From Patescibacteria group bacterium (GTDB taxonomy: Bacteria; Patescibacteriota; Minisyncoccia; Phycocordibacterales; GCA-2747955), in the NCBI GenBank assembly GCA_048538215.1, contig JBLYPV010000001.1, positions 467,850 to 531,849 of the forward strand: DNA of 64,000 nt, read 5' to 3'. Both the position numbers and the translations under genes were made by a program. Every line of letters starts with the position of its first letter. Positions within the stretch are counted from its first letter, which is position 1. Under the pieces are notes generated by a model. The model did not search any database. It was not told the origin of the DNA and saw nothing but the letters and a program-made list of their open reading frames with translations. Shown in pieces: positions 2,578 through 57,665 of this stretch.

Positions 2578-2811
2578 TTAATCTACTTGGATATTTCCAA
2601 AAAAAGTTTTCCCCTCTTTGCCGGGTAAGCTATGTACTTCCACAAAAATAGAATCTTTGCCCTCGGCGTGTCGCTTAATTCCACGCTCGACCCCACCAGT
2701 ACTCAGCCAAAAAAGATAGACAAAAACAAAACACAAAATCACTGTAGCAACCGGGAAGTGCCTAAACATGCCGACAAAAAGATTTTCACCATCTCCTGCT
2801 GATTCAGCCAT
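2578..2811 (-). CDS. Small hypothetical membrane protein (77 aa)
   Basis: ORF with one hydrophobic segment (VATVILCFVFVYLFWL); no homology recognised. Confidence 0.25.
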   Translation of the reverse strand: MAESAGDGENLFVGMFRHFPVATVILCFVFVYLFWLSTGGVERGIKRHAEGKDSIFVEVHSLPGKEGKTFFGNIQVD

Positions 2812-2891
2812 AATGTTATCTTAGCAAATCTACTATTAAATACCTATAGAGGCGAAAGCTCAAGCTCTACTTTATTGTTGAAAAATAAAGC

Positions 2892-2920
2892 GTGTAACAT
2901 GTTACACATGTGTTACACAG
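2892..2920. promoter_or_regulatory. Operator-like site: 16-bp perfect palindrome GTGTAACATGTTACAC plus a direct repeat of TGTTACACA
   Basis: Read directly in the sequence: GTGTAACATGTTACACATGTGTTACACAG. It lies in the 170-bp intergenic region upstream of the 77-aa ORF and downstream of trmH-like (both minus strand). Confidence 0.3.
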
Positions 2921-2984
2921 AATTTTTTCTTTTATCGTTTCTCGTGAAACACCTTCAAAATAAAATTATCTTTAGAAAATAAAC

Positions 2985-3455
2985 TTAGCAATCAAGTAGC
3001 CGAAAGAGGGCAATACCACAAGCGGTAGCTACATTGAGTGATTCCTTTTGTCCTTGCATTGGAATATGGCAGATGTGGCTTGCCAAGCTAAGCCAATCAT
3101 TGCTCACGCCATCAATTTCATTACCCACTACAAAAGCTACCCGAGACGAATTATCTACTGGGCTAATCGTTTTATAATCAACCGACTGGGGAGTTTGCTC
3201 AAGGGCAATAATAGTATCGGCTTGGCTTTGCACATACCCAATCGCCTCACTTGTGGTCCCAAAATATTTCCACGCTACAAGCTCCTGAGCACCTACGGCA
3301 GATTTAGCTAGATCACTCCGCTTGCGCCCAAAGCGATCAATGGGCGAGGGGGTAATGCCCACAAGAATAATTTCATCTACTCCTACCCCTTCGGCTGTTC
3401 GAAAAATAGCACCCACATTGTGCGTCGAGCGAATGTTGTCGAGTACTATAATCAT
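2985..3455 (-). CDS. SpoU/TrmH-family (SPOUT) RNA 2'-O-methyltransferase, TrmL-sized (156 aa)
   Basis: N-terminal MIIVLDNIRSTHNVGAIFRTAEGVG and C-terminal HIPMQG...SLNVATACGIALFRL are the SpoU methylase motifs. Confidence 0.75.
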   Translation of the reverse strand: MIIVLDNIRSTHNVGAIFRTAEGVGVDEIILVGITPSPIDRFGRKRSDLAKSAVGAQELVAWKYFGTTSEAIGYVQSQADTIIALEQTPQSVDYKTISPVDNSSRVAFVVGNEIDGVSNDWLSLASHICHIPMQGQKESLNVATACGIALFRLLDC

Positions 3456-3570
3456 AGTATAGGATTATACACGATAGTGACTACAAACTTATAGAGGGCT
3501 ATCCATTATGCATTTTAATTACTTACCATCACACAATGTGAAATTATCAGTATCAGTTATAATATGTAGT

Positions 3571-4365
3571 ATGAAGTATATTTCCTGGAATATAAATGGC
3601 TATCGTGCTTGGGTGGAAAAAGAGGGCACGGTAGATTTTCTCCTCTCACAGAATCCCGACATCATATGCTTTCAAGAAACAAAAGCTCAGACCGAGCAGA
3701 TTGAAAAGTCAGTAGCCCAGCACTTTACAAAGTGGCCCCATCACTTTTTTAACAGTGCAGAGAAAAAAGGATATTCGGGCACCGCAATCCTCTCCAAACA
3801 TGAGCCACTTTCGGTACACTATGGTATTGATGACTTAGCGCTCGCTGATAGCGAGGGCCGAGTAATTACTCTTGAGCTTGATGAGCACTACCTGGTGACT
3901 GTATATACTCCCAATAGCAAGCCCGAGCTAGAGCGAGTCGACCTTCGACACCAAGAGTGGGATGTAAAATTTTTAAAATACTTGCAAAAGCTTGAAAAGA
4001 AAAAGCCAGTGGTAATATGTGGTGATCTTAATGTAGCCCCTACTCATATTGATCTTAAAAATGATAAAACCAATCGCACAACTGACACACGCCCTGGTAG
4101 CCCTGGTGCTACCGACAAAGAGCGCGAGGGCTTTGCCAATTATCTAAGTGCTGGCTTTATTGACACTTGGCGTTACCTACACCCAGATAAGCAAAAGTAT
4201 AGCTGGTGGAGCTATCGCTCAAATGCACGAGCCACCAACGCTGGCTGGCGGATTGATTTTTTCTTAGTATCACAATCACTCAAATCAAATATTCTAAATG
4301 CCGAGATACACGATACTATCTACGGTAGCGACCACTGTCCTATATCTTTAGAATTAAAAAACTAA
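3571..4365 (+). CDS. xth: Exodeoxyribonuclease III / AP endonuclease
   Basis: MKYISWNINGYRA N-terminus and a C-terminal DHCP motif. Start moved to the ATG at 3571, which sits behind a TATAAT at 3558-3563; the ORF-track start at 3508 is probably an upstream extension. Confidence 0.85.
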   Translation: MKYISWNINGYRAWVEKEGTVDFLLSQNPDIICFQETKAQTEQIEKSVAQHFTKWPHHFFNSAEKKGYSGTAILSKHEPLSVHYGIDDLALADSEGRVITLELDEHYLVTVYTPNSKPELERVDLRHQEWDVKFLKYLQKLEKKKPVVICGDLNVAPTHIDLKNDKTNRTTDTRPGSPGATDKEREGFANYLSAGFIDTWRYLHPDKQKYSWWSYRSNARATNAGWRIDFFLVSQSLKSNILNAEIHDTIYGSDHCPISLELKN

Positions 4366-45822: not shown

Positions 45823-45965
45823 TGCCTTAGTATATCAAAAACACCGGGTTCTCATAGACTTATGGGGAAGAGTGATACGCACGGCAAAGCATAGGGGGGA
45901 ATATCTGTTCATATTTTTTAAGTTTTTCTATTTTCTCTATTTACCTTATTCGTGTAAATCATTTT

Positions 45966-46002
45966 ATGCTAAAAGTTGTCCGGGTTCGACAACTTTCACC
46001 AT
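45966..46002. repeat. Family-B palindromic element (ATGCTAAAAGTTGTCC-GGGTT-CGACAACTTTCACCAT)
   Basis: Inverted repeat read in the sequence; located in the promoter region upstream of the 46063 operon. Confidence 0.7.
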
Positions 46003-46062
46003 AAAATAAATAGTGGATAAATATCTTTTATTTATCTTATAAAATTGATAGGGTAAAAAATA

Positions 46063-47397
46063 ATGAGCGGGCTAGAGGACCATTTCACTCGAGCAAAGCA
46101 ACACAAATACGCGGGGCGTAAGCTCTTATGGTGGGGCCTGCACCCATTTCTTTTTATCATTATCTTTTCAGCGGTGCGTGCGGATGATGATTTTTATGCC
46201 ACTCTTCAAGGCATACTTTCTGTCAAAGATGGTCGAGTCGGTATCCAAAGTGCTAGCCTCCAGGGGGCGCTCAATATAGGAGGGCAAGCCCAGGCCACCA
46301 AAGGTATTGTGGCTCTAGGTGATGATGGGCAAGCCCATACCATTATTTCTGCTACCGAAGATGGGGGCTTGTGTGTGGGCGAGTGTGGAGAAGAGAGCAC
46401 TGCTAGTACCACAAGTGCAAGCACCTCGGTACAGAGTCGTGCCACCAACGAAGATACTGCTAGTACAAGCTCGAGCCAAGAAGCTACTGATCGTGCCACA
46501 GACGAGAAAAATGATGATCAATCAAGTATAAGCTCCAGTAAAAGCATAAATGCAACTTCGAGTGCCTCTAGTACCGACACAGGATCACCCAATCAATCAC
46601 CGGCCACATCTTCAGATCCCCAGACAGAATCAGGAGATTCATCCTCAGATGACAAAGAGGGTACCGTGCGCTTCACCGGAAAGAGAAGCTCAGGTGGAGG
46701 ATCATCAAATGATGGCTCTGATGAAGAGATTATAGTAGAGGAGATTCCTCATCAAGACACGGGGAGTACAAGCACGAGTAGTGAAGCAGTAGGTTTGTAT
46801 GATGCATTTGCTACTCTCCTCCAGTCTGTTTTATCAATTGGGAGAGGAAGCTTGGGGGTAGGAATGCAGGCGCTTGATGCCTATCGATTGGCGGTAAATG
46901 GCTGGATATTCACCACCGAAGGAATCATAGTAGGAGCACAGGGCGATCAGCAAGTAGGCTTTGGTATTAGCTCAAATGGGATGTGCCTTGGTAGGTGCGA
47001 CTTCGATATTTCAGAGCCTATCAATGTCGAAGCGAATGAAGAAGAAGCAAATAGGACACCACCAGAATCAGACGAAGATGATGCACCTAAAGTACAAGCC
47101 ACTACTCTCATCGCCACAAGCAGTGAGAGCGTCAGCTCTAGCCCAATCACCGGTACAAGTAGCACCAGCACAAGCCCTGCTGGCTTGCAAGAGGGAGGAG
47201 CTGATCAAGAGGTCGAAGATTCAAGTGCAAGCACCACGAGTACTAGCACCCTCGCTACTACCACTGCCACTACTACAAGTACGAGCACCTCACCCAGTGC
47301 TCAAGAAGCAAAAAATGAAATTGCCACATCCACTGCCTCTTCAAGCCAAGAGCAGGGCGCTTCAAGCACTACAAGTACAAGTAGCACTCCGCACTAA
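46063..47397 (+). CDS. Ser/Thr-rich secreted or anchored protein (low complexity) with two Cys-containing G-rich modules
   Basis: N-terminal hydrophobic anchor; more than 40% S/T in linkers; motifs GGLCVGECGEE and GMCLGRCDFD. Confidence 0.5.
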   Translation: MSGLEDHFTRAKQHKYAGRKLLWWGLHPFLFIIIFSAVRADDDFYATLQGILSVKDGRVGIQSASLQGALNIGGQAQATKGIVALGDDGQAHTIISATEDGGLCVGECGEESTASTTSASTSVQSRATNEDTASTSSSQEATDRATDEKNDDQSSISSSKSINATSSASSTDTGSPNQSPATSSDPQTESGDSSSDDKEGTVRFTGKRSSGGGSSNDGSDEEIIVEEIPHQDTGSTSTSSEAVGLYDAFATLLQSVLSIGRGSLGVGMQALDAYRLAVNGWIFTTEGIIVGAQGDQQVGFGISSNGMCLGRCDFDISEPINVEANEEEANRTPPESDEDDAPKVQATTLIATSSESVSSSPITGTSSTSTSPAGLQEGGADQEVEDSSASTTSTSTLATTTATTTSTSTSPSAQEAKNEIATSTASSSQEQGASSTTSTSSTPH

Positions 47398-47399
47398 AT

Positions 47400-50300
47400 A
47401 TGTTTTTAATAGACCAACAAAAAAGAGGGAAAATAGGGATCGTAATACTATTATTTGGTACAGGGATAATCCTTCCTTCACTTTGCTTGGCTCAAGAAGT
47501 GCCAGTAGCAACTATTCATAGTATAAAGCCTAATGGGCACTGGCATGATTCCAGCACATGGCTAGAGCATCGTATTCCCACCACAGATGATGTCGTGTAT
47601 GTGGATGTGCCTATAAAAATGAGGCACCAGCCTACGATTGTTCGTGGTCTGCACATTACCCCTTCGGGAAGGATTGATGGCTTAGGAAAGTATAATAATG
47701 GCTATCTTGCAGTGAGTGATTATTTTTATAACCAAGGAAGCATTGGCCGGAATATGTTTGAGCTTAAGCTAGGAGGGTGGATACGAGCCCTTGGGAGTAT
47801 TGCACTTAATAAAATCCGATTAAGTGGAGGGGAGATAGAGCTACCTCCAGTGGTGAATCACAATCTTTCTCTCACAAGAGATATTAGCCTTGTCAATCAA
47901 TCGCTAAAGCTTGGTGGTAGATTTGAAACAAATAATCGTATCATTACCCTGACCGCTACGAGCACTGATTTAGAGCTAGAGAATCCAGTAGACAAGCTTA
48001 TCGTCTACGGTACGAGCACTATTAATATAGGTCGGGAAGAATCGGAAGCAAGGATGATAGTAGATAGCATACAAGCTGCCTCATCTACTGTGCACTTTCA
48101 AGCTCCTAATATGGGCATAAATGGTGATGTTCGTGCAGAGAAAATATATATACATCATAGCCTCAAGCTTGAGGAGTCCAATATACGATTTACTGGAGAT
48201 GTCTATATCAAGCCGGGAGGCTACATCAATGGCGAAGCCTGGCGAGTAGTACACTGGTTTGAAATTGTGGGCGACTTGATCAATTATGGCTCGGTGGGGC
48301 CGTATGTCTATCTACATTTATGGGGGAGCTTGCACAATCATGGAAGTTATAGCAATTCGCAAGGTTTGGTGTTGCGAGGTGATGGAGAACGAAATTTTAT
48401 CGGTAGTATTCCCAATAAAGTATATTTGCGAGGTAATCAGATTTGGAGGTCTTCCCCTACTTTGTATGTTTTAGATACAGGTGGATACGAGATTACCCTT
48501 CCTCAAGGGGTAGGCCTCGCGCTCTCCAGTAGCAATGGTGATCTCAAAGTTGCTGGCTCGGGCGTTATCACCTATGTAGACCCAGTAACTCCCGACTACC
48601 AAGCATACGCTAGAGCTATTTATGCCCCAGATGCACGAGTGATTTTTGGTGCCAAGGGCTCGATATCTGATGATATTAGCGCCAATGTTATTGAAATCCG
48701 TGATCGATTAGAGGTAGCAGATTCTCTTACTATGAATGCCAATCAAGTAGCCTTTATCGGTGGGACTTTGCAGAGTGACAGCGAAAAATACAAGCGTCTA
48801 GTAGAGATCAACACCCCTTCTCTCCGGGGAGCTGGGCACCTAGGAAGCTACCTGGAGGCGTACTTTAATACAGATATTCCGCGAGGATTTAGTGCCGGAT
48901 GGAATACAGGAATCTATTTGCGTCACCGAGCAGATCAGACAGGCGATCAATTCAAGCTTGCAAGCTCAAGCGAAAGTATACTCGCTGGCATACAAGATAT
49001 TTTCTTAGATAGAGAGCCAAATTTGCGAGAGGTGCTCAATTCAGGAAAAGCCCACTACTATAGCTATCATAGCAATAATAGCTGGAGCGATATCTGGAGC
49101 ATCAATGCTGAGTACAACCCTTTTAATCTTCAAGAGGAATTAGCTCGGCGAAGCTATTTTGATTTTTCTTTTGTTCCACATCAGCAATCAGGAGAGCCAT
49201 TTTGGGTGCAAATTACTGCTCGGGATGCTACGTATGCTGGCGAGCTACATTTGAGTGCAAAGCGAGGAAGGGTATCACCTCGCCGGATTACACTAAGCGA
49301 TGGTAGCTGGCAGGGGGAGCTACGAATAATTGGTGAAGGTAGTGGAGAACAGCTAGTCGCTACTGGCTTGGGCAAATACGCAGGATACTCTGGACGATCA
49401 AATTATTTTGGTGTCAGCCAAGCGCAAGCCCTTGAGGGGGTGATTCGAGGGGTAGTACGGAGTGCTTCTGGAGCCCGTATTGATTATGGCTTGGTGGAAT
49501 TTACCGATCTCACCACCGGGGAGCATTGGAGCACTAGCATTGATAGCAATGGAAGATATAGCATCGCTCTGCCTTGCGGGGCATATGAGGTAAAAGCTTC
49601 GGGGGCAAGTTTGCGCAGTCTTTCTCTTTCCTGTGGTGAGACAATTATTTATGATATAGAGATAAGTAGATCTTGTGTAGCAGATAGGCGTATCCCAGTC
49701 ATCTTTGTGCCGGGGATTCAAGGATCAGATTCTTCTGATAATCCAACAGTCATATTCCCTGAGCTTCTCTCCTACGCCCCTCGCTGGGACTCTGCTAAGC
49801 TTCATCTGCATGATCCATTTGGTGCTGTGGGCTGGAAGCGCTTGCAAGAAGCACTCGAAGAGGAGGGCTATCGATATGGATGTACTATTTTTGCCGCTCC
49901 CTATGATTGGGCACTTTCGGCACAAGATAGTGCCGAGCAATATTTGATGCCAATGATAGAGCACGCCAAGAAAGTAGCATCCTCTACCCAGGTAGATATT
50001 GTGGCGCATTCGATGGGGGGATTGGTGGCTCGGGTGTATATTCAAGGCGAGGAATATCAGGGTGATGTTCGCCGTTTTGCTATGGTGGGCACTCCCAATG
50101 CTGGATCGGCAATGGCATATTTTTCTTGGGAGGGAGGAGATACAGAGCAGGCCGATAGCTATGGTGGTAATTTTTTTGAACATTTACTATCAAAAATTCA
50201 ACAAACAAATCAATTTCAAACGAAAACGACCGTAAAGAATCATTTGATAAAGACAGGAGAAGAAAAGCCACTGTGCTGGGGCTTTGGCCCACCATCAGAA

Positions 50301-50786
50301 TATACTGCTTGTGACCGAGAGCGGATCAAAGCATTTTTGCAGAGCTACGCACCATCGGTGGGCGAGCTCTATCCCAGCTACGATTTTCTCTTCGACGAGC
50401 AAAGCAAAAAAATGATAACACCAGCATTTGAAAATACCCTACTCCGTGCTCTCAATAATCAAGAGTGCGAGGAGGGCGATTGTGGATATAATTTTATCCC
50501 AATTGCAAAGCAAGGGGTGGAGATCCGCAATTTTGTGGGACTTGAAGAGAATATTCTTGGGCCTCGTCGTCATACACTTGAAAATATATATGTTTCACCT
50601 TCAAAAAATATAAGGTATGATTATTCTGATGGTAAGATAGAAATGCTAGAGTCGGGGATAGGTGATGGAACGGTGTTGGTGGATAGTGTACAGGCGGTTA
50701 AAGCACGGAGTGAGTTTTTGGACGAAAAACATTCTGCTCTAATTAAGAATATGAAAGATCAGATTAAAAATTTTTTAACTGAATAG
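47400..50786 (+). CDS. Large secreted protein (1128 aa): N-terminal signal peptide, beta-rich region, CarboxypepD_reg-like domain, C-terminal alpha/beta-hydrolase lipase/esterase domain
   Basis: Signal peptide IVILLFGTGIILPSLCLA; carboxypeptidase-regulatory-like GVIRGVVRSASGARIDYGLVEFTDLTTGEHWSTSIDSNGRYSIALPCGAYEV; lipase nucleophile elbow VAHSMGGLV preceded by IPVIFVPGIQGS. Three bp after the upstream stop. Confidence 0.6.
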   Translation: MFLIDQQKRGKIGIVILLFGTGIILPSLCLAQEVPVATIHSIKPNGHWHDSSTWLEHRIPTTDDVVYVDVPIKMRHQPTIVRGLHITPSGRIDGLGKYNNGYLAVSDYFYNQGSIGRNMFELKLGGWIRALGSIALNKIRLSGGEIELPPVVNHNLSLTRDISLVNQSLKLGGRFETNNRIITLTATSTDLELENPVDKLIVYGTSTINIGREESEARMIVDSIQAASSTVHFQAPNMGINGDVRAEKIYIHHSLKLEESNIRFTGDVYIKPGGYINGEAWRVVHWFEIVGDLINYGSVGPYVYLHLWGSLHNHGSYSNSQGLVLRGDGERNFIGSIPNKVYLRGNQIWRSSPTLYVLDTGGYEITLPQGVGLALSSSNGDLKVAGSGVITYVDPVTPDYQAYARAIYAPDARVIFGAKGSISDDISANVIEIRDRLEVADSLTMNANQVAFIGGTLQSDSEKYKRLVEINTPSLRGAGHLGSYLEAYFNTDIPRGFSAGWNTGIYLRHRADQTGDQFKLASSSESILAGIQDIFLDREPNLREVLNSGKAHYYSYHSNNSWSDIWSINAEYNPFNLQEELARRSYFDFSFVPHQQSGEPFWVQITARDATYAGELHLSAKRGRVSPRRITLSDGSWQGELRIIGEGSGEQLVATGLGKYAGYSGRSNYFGVSQAQALEGVIRGVVRSASGARIDYGLVEFTDLTTGEHWSTSIDSNGRYSIALPCGAYEVKASGASLRSLSLSCGETIIYDIEISRSCVADRRIPVIFVPGIQGSDSSDNPTVIFPELLSYAPRWDSAKLHLHDPFGAVGWKRLQEALEEEGYRYGCTIFAAPYDWALSAQDSAEQYLMPMIEHAKKVASSTQVDIVAHSMGGLVARVYIQGEEYQGDVRRFAMVGTPNAGSAMAYFSWEGGDTEQADSYGGNFFEHLLSKIQQTNQFQTKTTVKNHLIKTGEEKPLCWGFGPPSEYTACDRERIKAFLQSYAPSVGELYPSYDFLFDEQSKKMITPAFENTLLRALNNQECEEGDCGYNFIPIAKQGVEIRNFVGLEENILGPRRHTLENIYVSPSKNIRYDYSDGKIEMLESGIGDGTVLVDSVQAVKARSEFLDEKHSALIKNMKDQIKNFLTE

Positions 50787-50787
50787 T

Positions 50788-51060
50788 ATGAAATATTTTA
50801 AGTTTATTTTGTCCATAGGATATGTCTACTTTGGACTTGTTACTTTGCTAAATACACTACAACAAGGAGGCTCAGGACAATGGCATTATAATGTTTTTGG
50901 CCAAAGTAATCCTATTATCTTAGATTGGTGGTTGGTGATTATTCCTTCAATTATCATCACCGCTTTGATTGCTCGATATACTGATAGTAAAACTCAAACA
51001 ATTTTCTTTTATTTGTTTACCGGTCTGGTCGTCTTCCTGATTGTTGGTACATATTTATAA
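50788..51060 (+). CDS. Small 3-TM membrane protein, paralog 1
   Basis: ATG one bp after the lipase-gene stop. Clear paralogy with the next ORF (MKY.K.I...GG...WW..IPS.I....ARY...GT.L). Confidence 0.5.
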   Translation: MKYFKFILSIGYVYFGLVTLLNTLQQGGSGQWHYNVFGQSNPIILDWWLVIIPSIIITALIARYTDSKTQTIFFYLFTGLVVFLIVGTYL

Positions 51061-51072
51061 TTTCTTATTAGT

Positions 51073-51357
51073 ATGAAATATATAAAGTATATAATTGCCA
51101 TAGTATGGGTTCATATATGTACAGTAACTATACTACTAATAATAAGATCAGGTGGAGGTAACTTTTCCGTTAGTGATTTTTATGACGAATACACCGGATT
51201 TTGGGGCAATACCTACATCCAATGGTGGTGGGCGTTGATACCTTCTTTTATTGCCGTTGTGATTTATGCAAGGTATTTCTCGCGAGCAAGTCAGAGACGG
51301 ATTTTGATTTTGTACACAATCCTCGCCTTGTTGTTTATTTTAGGGACAAAATTATAA
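51073..51357 (+). CDS. Small 3-TM membrane protein, paralog 2
   Basis: Tandem duplicate of the previous ORF (~35-40% identity by eye). Confidence 0.5.
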   Translation: MKYIKYIIAIVWVHICTVTILLIIRSGGGNFSVSDFYDEYTGFWGNTYIQWWWALIPSFIAVVIYARYFSRASQRRILILYTILALLFILGTKL

Positions 51358-51373
51358 TAAAAATATATTTATA

Positions 51374-52564
51374 ATGAATACCATAGAGAAGCAATATATC
51401 TTTAATCTACATTATATCGGGCACAAGGTTTTTATCATCATCAGCATCCTGCTAGCTCCCCTGTGGGGATGGGCTCAATCGGATGTGCCCTTGCCTTTTC
51501 TCAGTATAGAGATAGGGGGCAATACGAGAATAATTATTACCGATCCAGAAGGCAATCGCACTGGCTCACAAGGATATGAAGTGCACAAGGCATCAGACAA
51601 TGCTCATTTGGTATTAGCATATGGTAAGCAATCTATTTCCTACGCCCAGCCAGTACTTGGCAAGTATGAGCTCGATCTGAAGGGCAGGCATAATGAGGTG
51701 TATGAGCTTGTGCTCGCTTGGTATGACGGGACTCAATATGAGCACCAGAGCTATCGATTCTATGCCAAAGCGGAGAGCTCTCGCAAGCTTGATATTACTT
51801 TGGAAGATGTGGGTGATGGTAGATGGCGAGTAAGCTCACCTAGCTTTGAGCAGGTATCTGCTCAGATTGGTAGATCAGAAAAAGATGAGAGTACAGTGTG
51901 GGTGTCTTGGCAGGCACTAGAAGGAGTGCGTAGCTATTATGTATATGCCAAAGAATCGGGGGCGATGCAATTTGAGCGAATTCTTAGCACAGAGGCTACC
52001 TCGAGCGCTACGGGTATTCCCTGGGGAGCGGATGCCAAGCTTGGGCCGAGCTATCTTGCCGTATCTGCTGTGCTAGAAAATGGCCGTGAGACAGCGCTTT
52101 CGCTCATACTCGCTACCGACGACAGCGATGGCGATGGCTATAGCGACGATCGCGAAGAAGCACGGGGTACCAATCCCTATGCACGAGATAGCGATGGCGA
52201 TGGGGTAGATGATTTTTTGGAAATTAATCGCTTTTATTCTGATCCGCTCAATCAGGACAGCGATGGCGATGACTATAGTGATGGTGAGGAAGTGAATGCG
52301 GGGACTCTCCCTAATAGTGATCGATCCTATCCGGGAGTGGGGCAAGAATGTGCCCCGCCTGCACAAGGGGATTGGGAAGTGCACAATGATTGTACGGTGG
52401 TGGAAAGTGATGTCATTCCCGCTGATCTGATTGTGTTTCCAAAAAGCATTTTGAGTATTGCACGGGGAGTCACGCTCTGGTTTGATTATTTGGAGCACTC
52501 GATCCTAGTTCTTTTTGGTGGAGGTATCAAAATGGCTCCTGATGCTCGTATTGAGCAACACTGA
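51374..52564 (+). CDS. Secreted protein with thrombospondin-type-3-like Ca-binding Asp repeats
   Basis: Signal/TM anchor; three DSDGDG(Y/V)xDxxE repeats (DSDGDGYSDDRE, DSDGDGVDDFLE, DSDGDDYSDGEE). Confidence 0.55.
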   Translation: MNTIEKQYIFNLHYIGHKVFIIISILLAPLWGWAQSDVPLPFLSIEIGGNTRIIITDPEGNRTGSQGYEVHKASDNAHLVLAYGKQSISYAQPVLGKYELDLKGRHNEVYELVLAWYDGTQYEHQSYRFYAKAESSRKLDITLEDVGDGRWRVSSPSFEQVSAQIGRSEKDESTVWVSWQALEGVRSYYVYAKESGAMQFERILSTEATSSATGIPWGADAKLGPSYLAVSAVLENGRETALSLILATDDSDGDGYSDDREEARGTNPYARDSDGDGVDDFLEINRFYSDPLNQDSDGDDYSDGEEVNAGTLPNSDRSYPGVGQECAPPAQGDWEVHNDCTVVESDVIPADLIVFPKSILSIARGVTLWFDYLEHSILVLFGGGIKMAPDARIEQH

Positions 52565-52604
52565 CGAGTAGGCAATAGATAGGCAAGAGCTTCCCAAATA
52601 AAAT

Positions 52605-52641
52605 ATGCTAAAAGTTGTCCGGGCTCGACAACTTTTAGCAT
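52605..52641. repeat. Family-B palindromic element (ATGCTAAAAGTTGTCC-GGGCT-CGACAACTTTTAGCAT); it is in a terminator-like position after the operon
   Basis: Read in the sequence. Confidence 0.7.
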
Positions 52642-52863
52642 AAAATGGGGGGAGGTGAAATAGGGGGGATGTATTTAATTAAATTATTTTTTAATTTTTT
52701 AATTTTAGATTGTGTCTACAATTGAAGAAGTGTATGTCTAATCCAAAGAATCTGTATTAAGTGGGAGAGGAGATATGCTTAAGGGGGTATGTATAAAATA
52801 AAGTTCGCCCGGAGGGCGCGCTTATTTATCTAATACTAAATGAAAAATACATTACTAGCTCTA

Positions 52864-55463: not shown

Positions 55464-57665
55464 ATGCGGATTTTACAAAAATATAGCGTTTTACTAGCAA
55501 TACTAATTGCCCTGCCTCTCCTGCTAGCTCATCAAGCGTGGGCACAAGATGCCCAAGCAGAAATTGAAAATACTATTAGCGATATTAGTCTAGAGGCAGA
55601 GGGAGCAATTCTAGTATCAGGAAGCATCGCAAGCTCGAGTAATAGAGGCCCCTTCTATATTCAAGCAGTGCTTTCCGACAAAGATGGTATCACGCGCGAT
55701 AGAATCCAGAGCAGACAAGCTCTCATCCCTGGCTCTTCTTACGAAGAGCGATTCAAGTTTGGTCTCTCGCCTGTTACCAGTGATAGGGTAATACTTATGA
55801 CCGTCACCGAAAGCGGAATTCCCTTTGATATTGATCCTCTACAAATAAAGTGGAGTAGTGATACCCCAGAAGCCCGCACCAATGAGATCCTTGATATTAT
55901 TTCTTGTGAGCATCAAGACGCCTCAGAAGAGCTGGTTTGTAGCTATCGAGGAGAAGTGGATACTCAATCTATCACCGTACGGCTCTATGATGGTCAGCCG
56001 TATACTGCTACACAAATAGCAGAGACTACTTCTTTGATACAAGAAGAATTAGATGGAGAGCTTGTTTTAAGTGCCTTTGCCAAGCCACAAGAAGATGGCT
56101 TGTATATTTATACAATTACTGATGACCGAGGCACCCTACTACACCAAGGCTCTGTGCGTAGAGGAGCAATTCCTGGATTTGAAAAGGAGCAGTCACTTGC
56201 AGATCAAGAAAAGCAGGATCAGCAGAGATTTTTGATGATACTCGGTGCTTTGAGCCTTGCCTTTTTCACTGCAGTGATGATGCTTTCACAATTCTTATTG
56301 AACCCAAAGAAGACTCGTTGGATATGGATTGGGGTGGGAGCTCTTATTCTTGCTTTCTTGAGTGTGTGGTATGTCGCTTATGCAGCCACCTATCAATCTA
56401 CCAATTATCCGCAGTACCAATATGTAGTGGATGTTACTCCTATTGATGCCACCGAGAATGTAGATGGTGATGTAATCGATACGACCTATATCATTTCTTT
56501 TAGTGCCTTTGATACTTATACAGGCAATGCGCCTATGGAGCAAAAGGTAGATATTACCTTCGATGGCTCTACCTACCAAGCATTTATTCGAGATGAATCA
56601 GGAGAAGTGGTGCATTCTCGCCAGGTCACTATCGCCGAAAGTGAAAAGAACACGAGTGCTCTCAAGGTAGTCGATGGCTGTGGAAGCTACTACCAATTCT
56701 CTGAAGCAGGCACTGATGTATACGGGAGCTACGACTGTAGCCCATACCCACTCTTTAATCTTGATGCCACAATCGGCTGTATGAATCCAAATGCTAGTAA
56801 TTATGATCCGAGTGCTATCATTTCAAGCGGGCAATGTAATTTTGGGGGCTGTATCATCCCAAGCGCGCTTAATTACAATCCATCAGCCACTATTGATGAC
56901 GGCTCATGTGTGGTCGAGGGCTGTGTAAATCCAGAGGCTACTAATTATGATCCGAAAGCCACTATTGATGACGGCTCATGCCTCTGTGGCGGTGGCTCTT
57001 GCGAGGATGTATATGGCTGTACCAATCCTGAATCCTCAAACTTCAATGAGCTAGCCACTATTGATGACGGCTCGTGCGATAATTGTATGTGGATACCGAT
57101 TATTCCTGACCCTTCTACCTTCTGTGCTACCGAGATCTATTACCAAACCAATAGCTGTACAAAAGAAGTACGCACCGTACAAGGCAATTTGCAATCTAAG
57201 TGGCTCCCCGATATATCAGCAAATGATATTTGTATTGGTGATTTTGTCACCCAAACCGAGCAGTGCTCACCACTTGATAAGCCCGCCACTCGAGTGCTCG
57301 AGGGTACGAGCAATAGCCCATTCTGTTTTGCTCCCATTACAGAATTTGAAGTATCTACCAATCTCACTAATTGGACTAGTTGTGAAAAGATAGGTCGCAT
57401 CCAAATGACTCATCCGAGCCAAGAGCTTTACTTGCGACCATCAGGTACTGAGCCAGTAGACTCATGGGCAATTTCACAAGAAGCTGGAGAGATTAGTGGC
57501 TCGGTGAGCTCATATAAGGGAGATGTGTGGAAAGCACAATTCAATTATCTTGTTGAGCAAAAGCAATTCAATGATGTGTCGATTACTATGAGGTCGCCTG
57601 CAGGGAATGAGGCCACTCAGCTTTGTAATATTTCTCTCTTGAGCTTTAGTTTTGAGGAGCGCTAG
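55464..57665 (+). CDS. Surface protein with signal peptide, two central TM helices and a C-terminal array of ~33-aa Cys-containing repeats
   Basis: Four tandem repeats of the form GC.NP.A.NY(D/N)P.AT.DDGSC. Confidence 0.55.
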   Translation: MRILQKYSVLLAILIALPLLLAHQAWAQDAQAEIENTISDISLEAEGAILVSGSIASSSNRGPFYIQAVLSDKDGITRDRIQSRQALIPGSSYEERFKFGLSPVTSDRVILMTVTESGIPFDIDPLQIKWSSDTPEARTNEILDIISCEHQDASEELVCSYRGEVDTQSITVRLYDGQPYTATQIAETTSLIQEELDGELVLSAFAKPQEDGLYIYTITDDRGTLLHQGSVRRGAIPGFEKEQSLADQEKQDQQRFLMILGALSLAFFTAVMMLSQFLLNPKKTRWIWIGVGALILAFLSVWYVAYAATYQSTNYPQYQYVVDVTPIDATENVDGDVIDTTYIISFSAFDTYTGNAPMEQKVDITFDGSTYQAFIRDESGEVVHSRQVTIAESEKNTSALKVVDGCGSYYQFSEAGTDVYGSYDCSPYPLFNLDATIGCMNPNASNYDPSAIISSGQCNFGGCIIPSALNYNPSATIDDGSCVVEGCVNPEATNYDPKATIDDGSCLCGGGSCEDVYGCTNPESSNFNELATIDDGSCDNCMWIPIIPDPSTFCATEIYYQTNSCTKEVRTVQGNLQSKWLPDISANDICIGDFVTQTEQCSPLDKPATRVLEGTSNSPFCFAPITEFEVSTNLTNWTSCEKIGRIQMTHPSQELYLRPSGTEPVDSWAISQEAGEISGSVSSYKGDVWKAQFNYLVEQKQFNDVSITMRSPAGNEATQLCNISLLSFSFEER

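Follow-up and report, generated by a model that had tools for sequence, protein, structure and literature searches.

The window analysed here is a 64-kb stretch of a Patescibacteria metagenome-assembled genome (MAG; NCBI), and our subject is a cassette of five plus-strand open reading frames (ORFs), tightly packed between positions 46063 and 52564. They encode, in this order, a Ser/Thr-rich protein, a large exported lipase, two tiny membrane proteins (mini 1 and mini 2, the minis from here on) and a secreted protein with TSP3 repeats (Table 1). A first-pass annotation of this DNA had proposed a five-gene operon at this place, and all of its ORFs were recovered at the positions it gave; the intervening gaps are 2, 1, 12 and 16 nt, the first of which had been given as 3 bp. 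Its guess that the host was an episymbiont with a reduced genome agrees with the source of the sequence. Independent metagenomic relatives with identities of 38-62% repeat the order Ser/Thr-rich protein, lipase, one or more minis and TSP3 protein, so the arrangement is not a product of chance. The region is best explained as a single operon with which a Patescibacteria episymbiont would make a lipase apparatus for its cell surface.

Table 1. Features of the lipase cassette and of the repeats that bracket it, in window coordinates.
Feature	Position	Strand	Basis
43-nt hairpin repeat, upstream copy (TATGCTAAAAGTTGTCCGGGTTCGACAACTTTCACCATAAAAT)	45965..46007	.	repeat family D1, alignment, folding
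Ser/Thr-rich protein, 444 aa	46063..47397	+	ORF, composition, hydropathy
Exported multidomain lipase, 1128 aa	47400..50786	+	ORF, hydropathy, Pfam, AF2 models
Beta-helix region, right-handed, adhesin-like (aa ~140-445)	47817..48734	+	
Two Ig-like beta-sandwich domains (aa ~590-760)	49167..49679	+	Pfam, AF2, Foldseek
LPLA2/LCAT/PGAP1-type alpha/beta-hydrolase lipase domain (aa 765-1128)	49692..50783	+	
Mini-protein 1, 90 aa	50788..51060	+	ORF, hydropathy, orthologues
Mini-protein 2, 94 aa	51073..51357	+	ORF, BLASTP to mini 1
TSP3-repeat secreted protein, 396 aa	51374..52564	+	Pfam TSP3_bac
43-nt hairpin repeat, downstream copy	52604..52646	.	repeat family D1, alignment, folding

The second gene product, named 'lipase/acyltransferase domain-containing protein' by NCBI, consists of a signal peptide, an N-terminal cap modelled with low confidence, a beta-helix, two Ig-like domains and the lipase domain. 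Its N-terminus is hydrophobic (aa 12-30), a Sec-type signal peptide was judged by eye to span aa 1-31, and the protein is accordingly predicted to be exported via Sec; neither an anchor nor a sorting motif was found at its C-terminus. The beta-helix region matches Vag8, EtpA and Hap. The AlphaFold2 (AF2) model of aa 590-1128 is confident (pLDDT, the predicted local distance difference test, 91.7), with an all-beta Ig-like part at around 90. Foldseek matched the two beta-sandwiches to Gram-positive pilin-like Ig folds, and the second of them is a CarboxypepD_reg domain (PF13620, aa 682-739; 35.2 bits against a cut-off of 32.3).

The lipase elbow (VAHSMGGLV) that the first-pass annotation had picked out in the C-terminal ~400 aa is indeed there, with the motifs IPVIFVPG at aa 765 and AHSMGG at aa 869, and four Pfam profiles score above their cut-offs: LCAT (PF02450; 58.6 bits, cut-off 21), PGAP1 (PF07819; 36.4, cut-off 24.3), Lipase_2 (PF01674; 27.6, cut-off 20.3) and DUF7379 (PF24096; 35.6, cut-off 33). 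The domain has an alpha/beta-hydrolase fold, for which Foldseek returned bacterial family I lipases (6cl4, 1ys1 and 2es4 at the top) and PhaZ7. The catalytic Ser-Asp-His triad, on whose completeness the earlier proposal had been made to depend, is complete: Ser871 (nt 50010-50012), Asp1089 (nt 50664-50666) and His1111 (nt 50730-50732) are kept in all ungapped rows of a 62-sequence alignment (62/62, 56/56 and 55/55, respectively). The nearest solved relatives by sequence are lysosomal phospholipase A2 (LPLA2) and LCAT, with AHSMGG falling on the nucleophile motif and GIGDGTV on the motif of the catalytic Asp. Taken together, sequence comparison identifies the C-terminal part as a predicted catalytically intact serine lipase or phospholipase of the LPLA2/LCAT type. 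An assignment to the Tle4 family was rejected, the 62-sequence family profile giving Tle4 a weaker score (E 6.7e-7) than LPLA2, LCAT, PhaZ7 or LipA. Because of this ranking the membership is placed by profile comparison at the level of the LCAT/PGAP1 lipase clan, and the enzyme is a new member of that known clan.

Mini 1 starts 1 nt past the stop codon of the lipase gene. The two minis are paralogues, as had been noticed before, with an identity of 32% over their full length (BLASTP, E 1e-12), somewhat below the ~35-40% estimated by eye. Each is predicted from hydropathy and homology to have three hydrophobic helices, in line with the three-transmembrane (3-TM) topology proposed earlier, and both end within the third helix and have no charged C-terminal tail. 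In mini 1, an outer loop carries the motif GGSGxWH…FG and helix 2 opens with DWW…IPS; across the whole mini family only three positions are invariant. The duplication takes in 9 nt upstream of the ATG (DNA repeat family D2). In the identity matrix the nearest relative of mini 2 is P0007, one of a tandem array of minis in a related locus (L006; 39% identity), against 33% for mini 1, which hints, as far as such identities can tell, that the duplication is old. Mini 2 (51073-51357) also appears to be unannotated in the NCBI record, where its neighbours, mini 1 and the TSP3 gene, have the consecutive tags ACKKL4_02820 and ACKKL4_02825, and its exact sequence is absent from the protein collection.

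The mini family is very small. A word-indexed homology search with the mini alignment recovered only itself and one orthologue, an exhaustive profile search added three clusters, making 4 among 1.84 billion representative proteins, and an improved hidden Markov model (HMM) found one further member in loci that had been fetched from relatives (91 loci, designated by L-numbers). Scans of metagenomes gave no matches, and hence neither further cassette loci nor orphan arrays. All minis that were found either follow a homologous lipase gene directly or form part of a tandem array of minis, as expected from the earlier suggestion that mini homologues would be linked to hydrolase genes. The predicted variation in copy number was also observed, with one mini each in L001/L004, L005, L007 and L089, two in the window and at least four in L006.

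The individual loci differ in composition. L001/L004 repeats the order of the window with a Ser/Thr-rich protein, a lipase (62% identical), one mini and a TSP3 protein; L007 contains the lipase, one mini and the TSP3 protein, and L005 the C-terminus of the lipase followed by the same two genes. L006 contains the four or more tandem minis, the first of them cut by the contig end, then the TSP3 protein and a 182-aa multi-TM protein (L006:2212-2760), which has no counterpart in the window, where the cassette ends at a hairpin. L091, from the same sample as L006, encodes a Ser/Thr-rich protein, a lipase and the start of a mini resembling the copy at 145-453 of L006. In L089/L090 the lipase (38% identical) is followed by one mini that overlaps the lipase stop codon by 8 nt and then by RecJ. 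Since this locus keeps lipase and mini and has no TSP3 gene, the minis are tied to the lipase and not to the TSP3 gene. Lastly, L088 has a lipase, two tandem paralogous small membrane proteins that are not detectably related to the minis, and a TSP3-like protein. Homology of these two partners to the minis was rejected (probability 3.4%) despite a GGS-x-W-H loop motif seen by eye. The two L088 proteins (2780-3205 and 3226-3774) share their first 28 residues and diverge after them, which suggests that their 5' part was recently duplicated or underwent gene conversion.

The association of the lipase with a small membrane protein extends far beyond the minis. A scan of species-representative genomes for the lipase domain gave at least 298 confirmed matches, of which 80, mostly from Patescibacteria, were kept; no mini homologue was detected in these loci by HMM. 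A protein counted as a partner if it had no more than 200 aa and two or more hydrophobic helices and started between -20 and +60 nt from the lipase stop codon. With crude gene calls (longest ORF) and TM helices counted by Kyte-Doolittle hydropathy, such an ORF directly followed the lipase gene in 24 of 39 Patescibacteria loci and 4 of 7 unlabelled loci, and in none of the 19 loci from other phyla. As a control, only 5 of 163 other long ORFs of the same loci had a small multi-TM follower (odds ratio 49, p 9e-18). Among the genes neighbouring the lipase, the lipase and the small-TM gene form the sole conserved pair. The coupling of this lipase with a small membrane protein is thus real and general in Patescibacteria, and absent from the loci of other phyla surveyed.

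Most of the Patescibacteria partners belong to one 4-TM family of 120-147 aa, whose genes start between -19 and +15 nt from the lipase stop codon. Its members carry the motif FGGxKKYWWIG…P…D..H.Y and a short, basic C-terminal tail, and come from Saccharibacteria, Paceibacterota, Kaiserbacteria, Magasanikbacteria and other groups (L016, L019-L023, L026, L027, L029, L030, L036, L038, L039, L043, L047, L049, L051, L057 and L087; for example L016:9830-10192). This lipase-adjacent family has no Pfam match and is undescribed. In other loci the same slot after the lipase gene is filled by different small proteins with 2-5 TM helices. Arrays occur as well, L087 having three small-TM genes after the lipase. 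Homology between the minis and the 4-TM family (alignment A4) was rejected, with an hhalign probability of 2% and no HMM match in either direction; the two have only position and general build in common.

The outer genes of the cassette encode putative surface proteins. The 444-aa protein had been described as anchored and rich in Ser and Thr, and these two residues do make up 29.5% of it, with a single hydrophobic segment near the N-terminus (aa 20-38, by hydropathy). A Gly/Cys module of ~70 aa occurs in it twice (…GGLCVGECGE and …NGMCLGRCDF; 33% identity, E 5e-6), both copies ending in G-x-C-x-G-x-C and being separated by long low-complexity Ser/Thr linkers. Homologues occupy the same position upstream of the lipase gene at L001:3-968 and L091:698-2152; no match was found in Pfam, NCBIfam or PDB. 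This protein is probably a surface stalk. The 396-aa protein comprises a signal peptide, an N-terminal beta domain, an FN3-like segment, TSP3 repeats and a Cys-containing C-terminal domain. The thrombospondin-type-3 calcium repeats ascribed to it on first inspection are recognised by TSP3_bac (PF18884) in two stretches, with 38.3 bits against the curated cut-off of 25, and DxDxDG-type repeats also show up at the DNA level as repeat families D4 and D5. Homologues follow the mini or small-TM genes in L004, L005, L006, L007 and L088, and not in L089/L090. The first and last products of the cassette, one anchored and rich in Ser and Thr, the other calcium-binding with TSP3 repeats, appear to be accessory surface components particular to this clade.

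The cassette is bracketed by two directly oriented copies of a hairpin repeat, whose 31-nt core (45966-45996) occurs exactly twice in the window against an expectation of 0. The upstream copy lies in a divergent intergenic region, its core ending 66 nt before the first gene, and folds with -14.7 kcal/mol (z -5.0). The downstream copy begins 39 nt past the last stop codon and has a perfect 16-bp stem, with folding energies of -21.4 kcal/mol on the plus strand and -22.9 on the minus strand (z -5.8 and -8.2, respectively). Because a T-rich run follows it on the minus strand, the downstream hairpin could be the terminator of the convergent DksA-like gene; such a role makes no sense for the upstream copy, since this lies in a divergent promoter region. 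The bracketing may indicate that the cassette was inserted or recombines as a unit, and paired regulatory or terminator elements are a possible alternative. Searches of the 91 fetched loci and of viral contigs gave no further copy of the repeat. The flanks of the cassette hold ordinary genes (ComM-like, VanY, TatD, DksA-like and M23 peptidase). Further downstream, 55464-57665 encodes a 733-aa secreted or membrane protein with tandem Cys-bounded repeats (C-x-NP-x-A-x-NYDP-x-A-x-x-DDGSC) and no significant Pfam match.

What the small partners do can be approached from the pattern of their occurrence. The first-pass annotation had read lipase and minis as a toxin/immunity module; adjacency (a 1-nt gap), co-inheritance and copy-number variation speak for it, while a dedicated delivery route and a known immunity family are missing. 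We tentatively favour, at somewhat less than an even chance, a related proposal in which the minis are self-protection (immunity-like) factors of the symbiont's exposed, host-derived membrane. In such a scheme the lipase would attack or harvest lipids of the host-cell membrane at the contact site, and the minis would sit in the producer's own exposed cytoplasmic membrane. There, contacts of the lipase at the outer leaflet with their conserved Trp/His/Gly-rich outer loop and with an interfacial WW-IPS motif would stop the hydrolysis of the symbiont's own host-derived membrane, and tandem duplication and divergence of the minis would track the divergence of the lipase. The tight coupling, the arrays, the turnover of unrelated families and the absence from diderm homologues all point in this direction. 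The filling of one slot by several apparently unrelated small-TM families is usual for immunity genes, and a need for self-protection would fit the finding of the pair only in organisms whose cytoplasmic membrane is exposed and built from scavenged lipids.

Several observations weigh against self-protection. No LXG, PAAR, Rhs, MuF or similar delivery domain was found in the five proteins (Pfam, NCBIfam) or in their neighbours, there being only Sec-type signal peptides, and no secretion-system or toxin-trafficking gene lies in or beside the cassette. The minis gave nothing above sub-threshold noise in Pfam, NCBIfam, PADLOC and PHROGs, so that the earlier failure to place them in a known immunity family was borne out. 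The lipase immunity proteins known so far (Tli1-5, TilA) cover the active site and are either soluble in the periplasm or lipoproteins, and no more than about 18-25 residues of a mini lie outside the membrane. They diverge at about the rate of the lipase and not faster, and orphan mini arrays were not seen. The crudeness of the gene calls and helix counts in the pairing survey is a further point on this side. Moreover, about 38% of the Patescibacteria lipases with intact AHSMGG/GDxTV motifs have no adjacent small-TM gene, and 6 of 14 such partner-less lipases, compared with 4 of 27 with a partner, have a membrane anchor at their own C-terminus (p 0.064). The anchored partner-less enzymes (L014, L035, L054, L058, L074 and L082) were scored as ending, after a low-complexity linker, in a single TM helix with a basic tail; by eye the anchor is clear in 5 of the 6, the C-terminus of L082 showing none. 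Two lipases, those of L060 and L062, have both anchor and partner. The anchored enzymes that have no partner suggest that the lipase can sit on its own membrane in the absence of a dedicated protector, and because some partner-less intact lipases carry their own C-terminal anchor, it may be a resident surface enzyme that is not necessarily toxic to its producer. Nor is the pairing peculiar to the window, where it is the form taken in this lineage by a rule that holds across Patescibacteria; such generality is at least as much in keeping with a core physiological role as with a conflict system.

The same anchors bear on the alternative that the minis are tethers or assembly partners. According to this, they would dock an anchorless, Sec-released lipase on the symbiont surface or aid its maturation, so that its action would be limited to the site of host contact, and they would protect nothing. 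The window lipase does lack a C-terminal anchor and sorting motif, and an own C-terminal TM anchor, with its long linker and basic tail, is commoner where the partner is missing. The pair is likewise limited to Patescibacteria and missing from diderm homologues, whose enzyme is released past an outer membrane. There is also a precedent in the lipases of families I.1 and I.2, which are among the top Foldseek matches and whose genes are followed by lif, the gene of a membrane-anchored foldase. However, the anti-correlation of anchor and partner is weak, and it is broken by the two lipases that have both; a 20-residue loop is a small surface to hold a protein of 120 kDa; a structural subunit would not be expected to vary in copy number or to be replaced by unrelated families; and the minis are unlike Lif in having no Pfam match and no large extracytoplasmic domain. 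A tether seems to us rather unlikely, with perhaps one chance in a few.

We also considered the acquisition of host lipids, in which a surface lipase or transacylase would free fatty acids or lysolipids from the host and oligomers of the small polytopic proteins would take up or flip the products. Patescibacteria lack lipid biosynthesis, a recent review describes their mechanisms of lipid uptake and breakdown as unidentified, and lysolipids have been implicated (PMC11665869), a dependence that such a function would fit. In addition, the lipase domain is common in Patescibacteria, to which the pair is restricted; the pair travels as a self-contained two-gene unit; and LPLA2 and LCAT, the closest solved relatives, are phospholipases/transacylases. 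On the other hand, the minis show no residue pattern suggestive of transport and offer no sequence support for it, they share only their three invariant positions, and families without detectable homology occupy the slot; more than a third of the lipases have no partner, and the variation in copy number would be left unexplained. We regard this function as doubtful. It is similarly unlikely that the lipase and small polytopic protein constitute the long-sought lipid-scavenging device of Patescibacteria, in which a contact-dependent surface enzyme of the LPLA2/LCAT type would strip acyl chains or lysolipids from the host membrane and the membrane partner would receive them or flip them into the bilayer of the symbiont; the window cassette would then be a more elaborate form of this device, to which a stalk protein, a calcium-binding protein and a second partner copy have been added.

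Two further explanations appear very improbable. Holin-like release factors, which would permeabilise the membrane and aid the release of the lipase or other cargo, would agree with the small size (1-4 TM), sequence diversity and frequent pairing of holins beside genes for secreted hydrolases, and with the short basic C-terminal tail of the wider 4-TM family, but the lipase already has a Sec signal peptide, the minis end in their third helix and have no charged tail, no peptidoglycan hydrolase gene is coupled to the pair and PHROGs gave no matches. Size, topology and the Sec signal led us to set aside both holins and a Lif-like foldase. Hardly any weight can be given to the view that the minis are small membrane proteins of a generic kind whose only tie to the surface-protein genes is a common operon: they have no functional annotation and are equally adjacent to the TSP3 gene in 5 of 6 loci, but lipase and mini stay neighbours in the locus that has no TSP3 gene, the mini family is found nowhere else, and the analogous adjacency is ~49-fold enriched over control genes.

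We found no description of the lipase and small-TM pair in the literature searched. Phospholipases of Patescibacteria are proposed there only in general terms, as factors that damage the host envelope, and the Southlakia transposon-sequencing (Tn-seq) paper makes no mention of lipases or lipids. The value of the locus lies mainly in the phylum-wide pairing and its bearing on lipid handling in Patescibacteria, for which it gives a concrete and testable unit: the gene of an exported LPLA2/LCAT-type lipase followed, in about 60% of the Patescibacteria homologues, by a tiny multi-TM gene. Whether the partner serves in self-protection, as a tether or as a lipid acceptor, the pair marks a membrane interface of lipid handling in these episymbionts, and it offers small, tractable targets in the genetically manipulable Saccharibacteria. 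If the self-protection proposal is true, this would be a lipase effector-immunity system that does without a specialised secretion machine, with a new, almost fully membrane-embedded kind of immunity protein.

Compared with known systems, the window lipase differs from its eukaryotic relatives LPLA2 (PLA2G15)/LCAT (PF02450) and PGAP1-like proteins (PF07819), which are soluble enzymes with no beta-helix/Ig stalk and no partner gene. The Tle1-5/Tli pairs, such as Tle4-Tli4 (PDB 4r1d), depend on a type VI secretion system (T6SS) for delivery into the diderm periplasm, and their Tli binders are soluble proteins or lipoproteins, whereas the cassette has only a Sec signal peptide, a monoderm-like host and 3-TM proteins of about 90 aa, and its lipase is related to Tle4 only at the clan level. 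The lipase toxins TslA/TslM of Staphylococcus aureus, which use a type VII secretion system (T7SS), reportedly combine a monoderm host with multiple tandem membrane-associated immunity genes. These toxins have LXG-like targeting domains, T7SS genes and immunity lipoproteins with a folded extracellular domain, none of which is present in the cassette.

Polytopic immunity proteins are closer in build to the minis. Those of pore-forming colicins, TsaI of TspA and the 4-TM proteins of the Min-Wnt lipocone toxins (PMC12419801) have about 90-180 aa and 3-4 TM helices and are encoded beside the toxin gene, sometimes in arrays, and immunity proteins of lipid-targeting toxins are reported to be TM proteins or lipoproteins that act at the membrane. 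We found no sequence relation of the minis to the immunity proteins of colicins, TspA or Min-Wnt, and the toxins themselves insert into the membrane or act on head groups, whereas the window enzyme is a large soluble alpha/beta hydrolase. Finally, the lipA-lif operons of Pseudomonas and Burkholderia resemble the window in having the gene of a membrane-anchored partner directly after the lipase gene. Lif is required by its lipase, which it embraces with a large helical periplasmic domain, and has about 340 aa and one TM helix; the minis, by contrast, have three hydrophobic helices in 90 and 94 aa, are almost wholly embedded in the membrane and do not match the Lipase_chap profile. In its gene grammar the module is similar to the Tle-Tli, TslA-TilA and lipA-lif operons, but it has neither the delivery system nor the type of partner family that characterise each of them.

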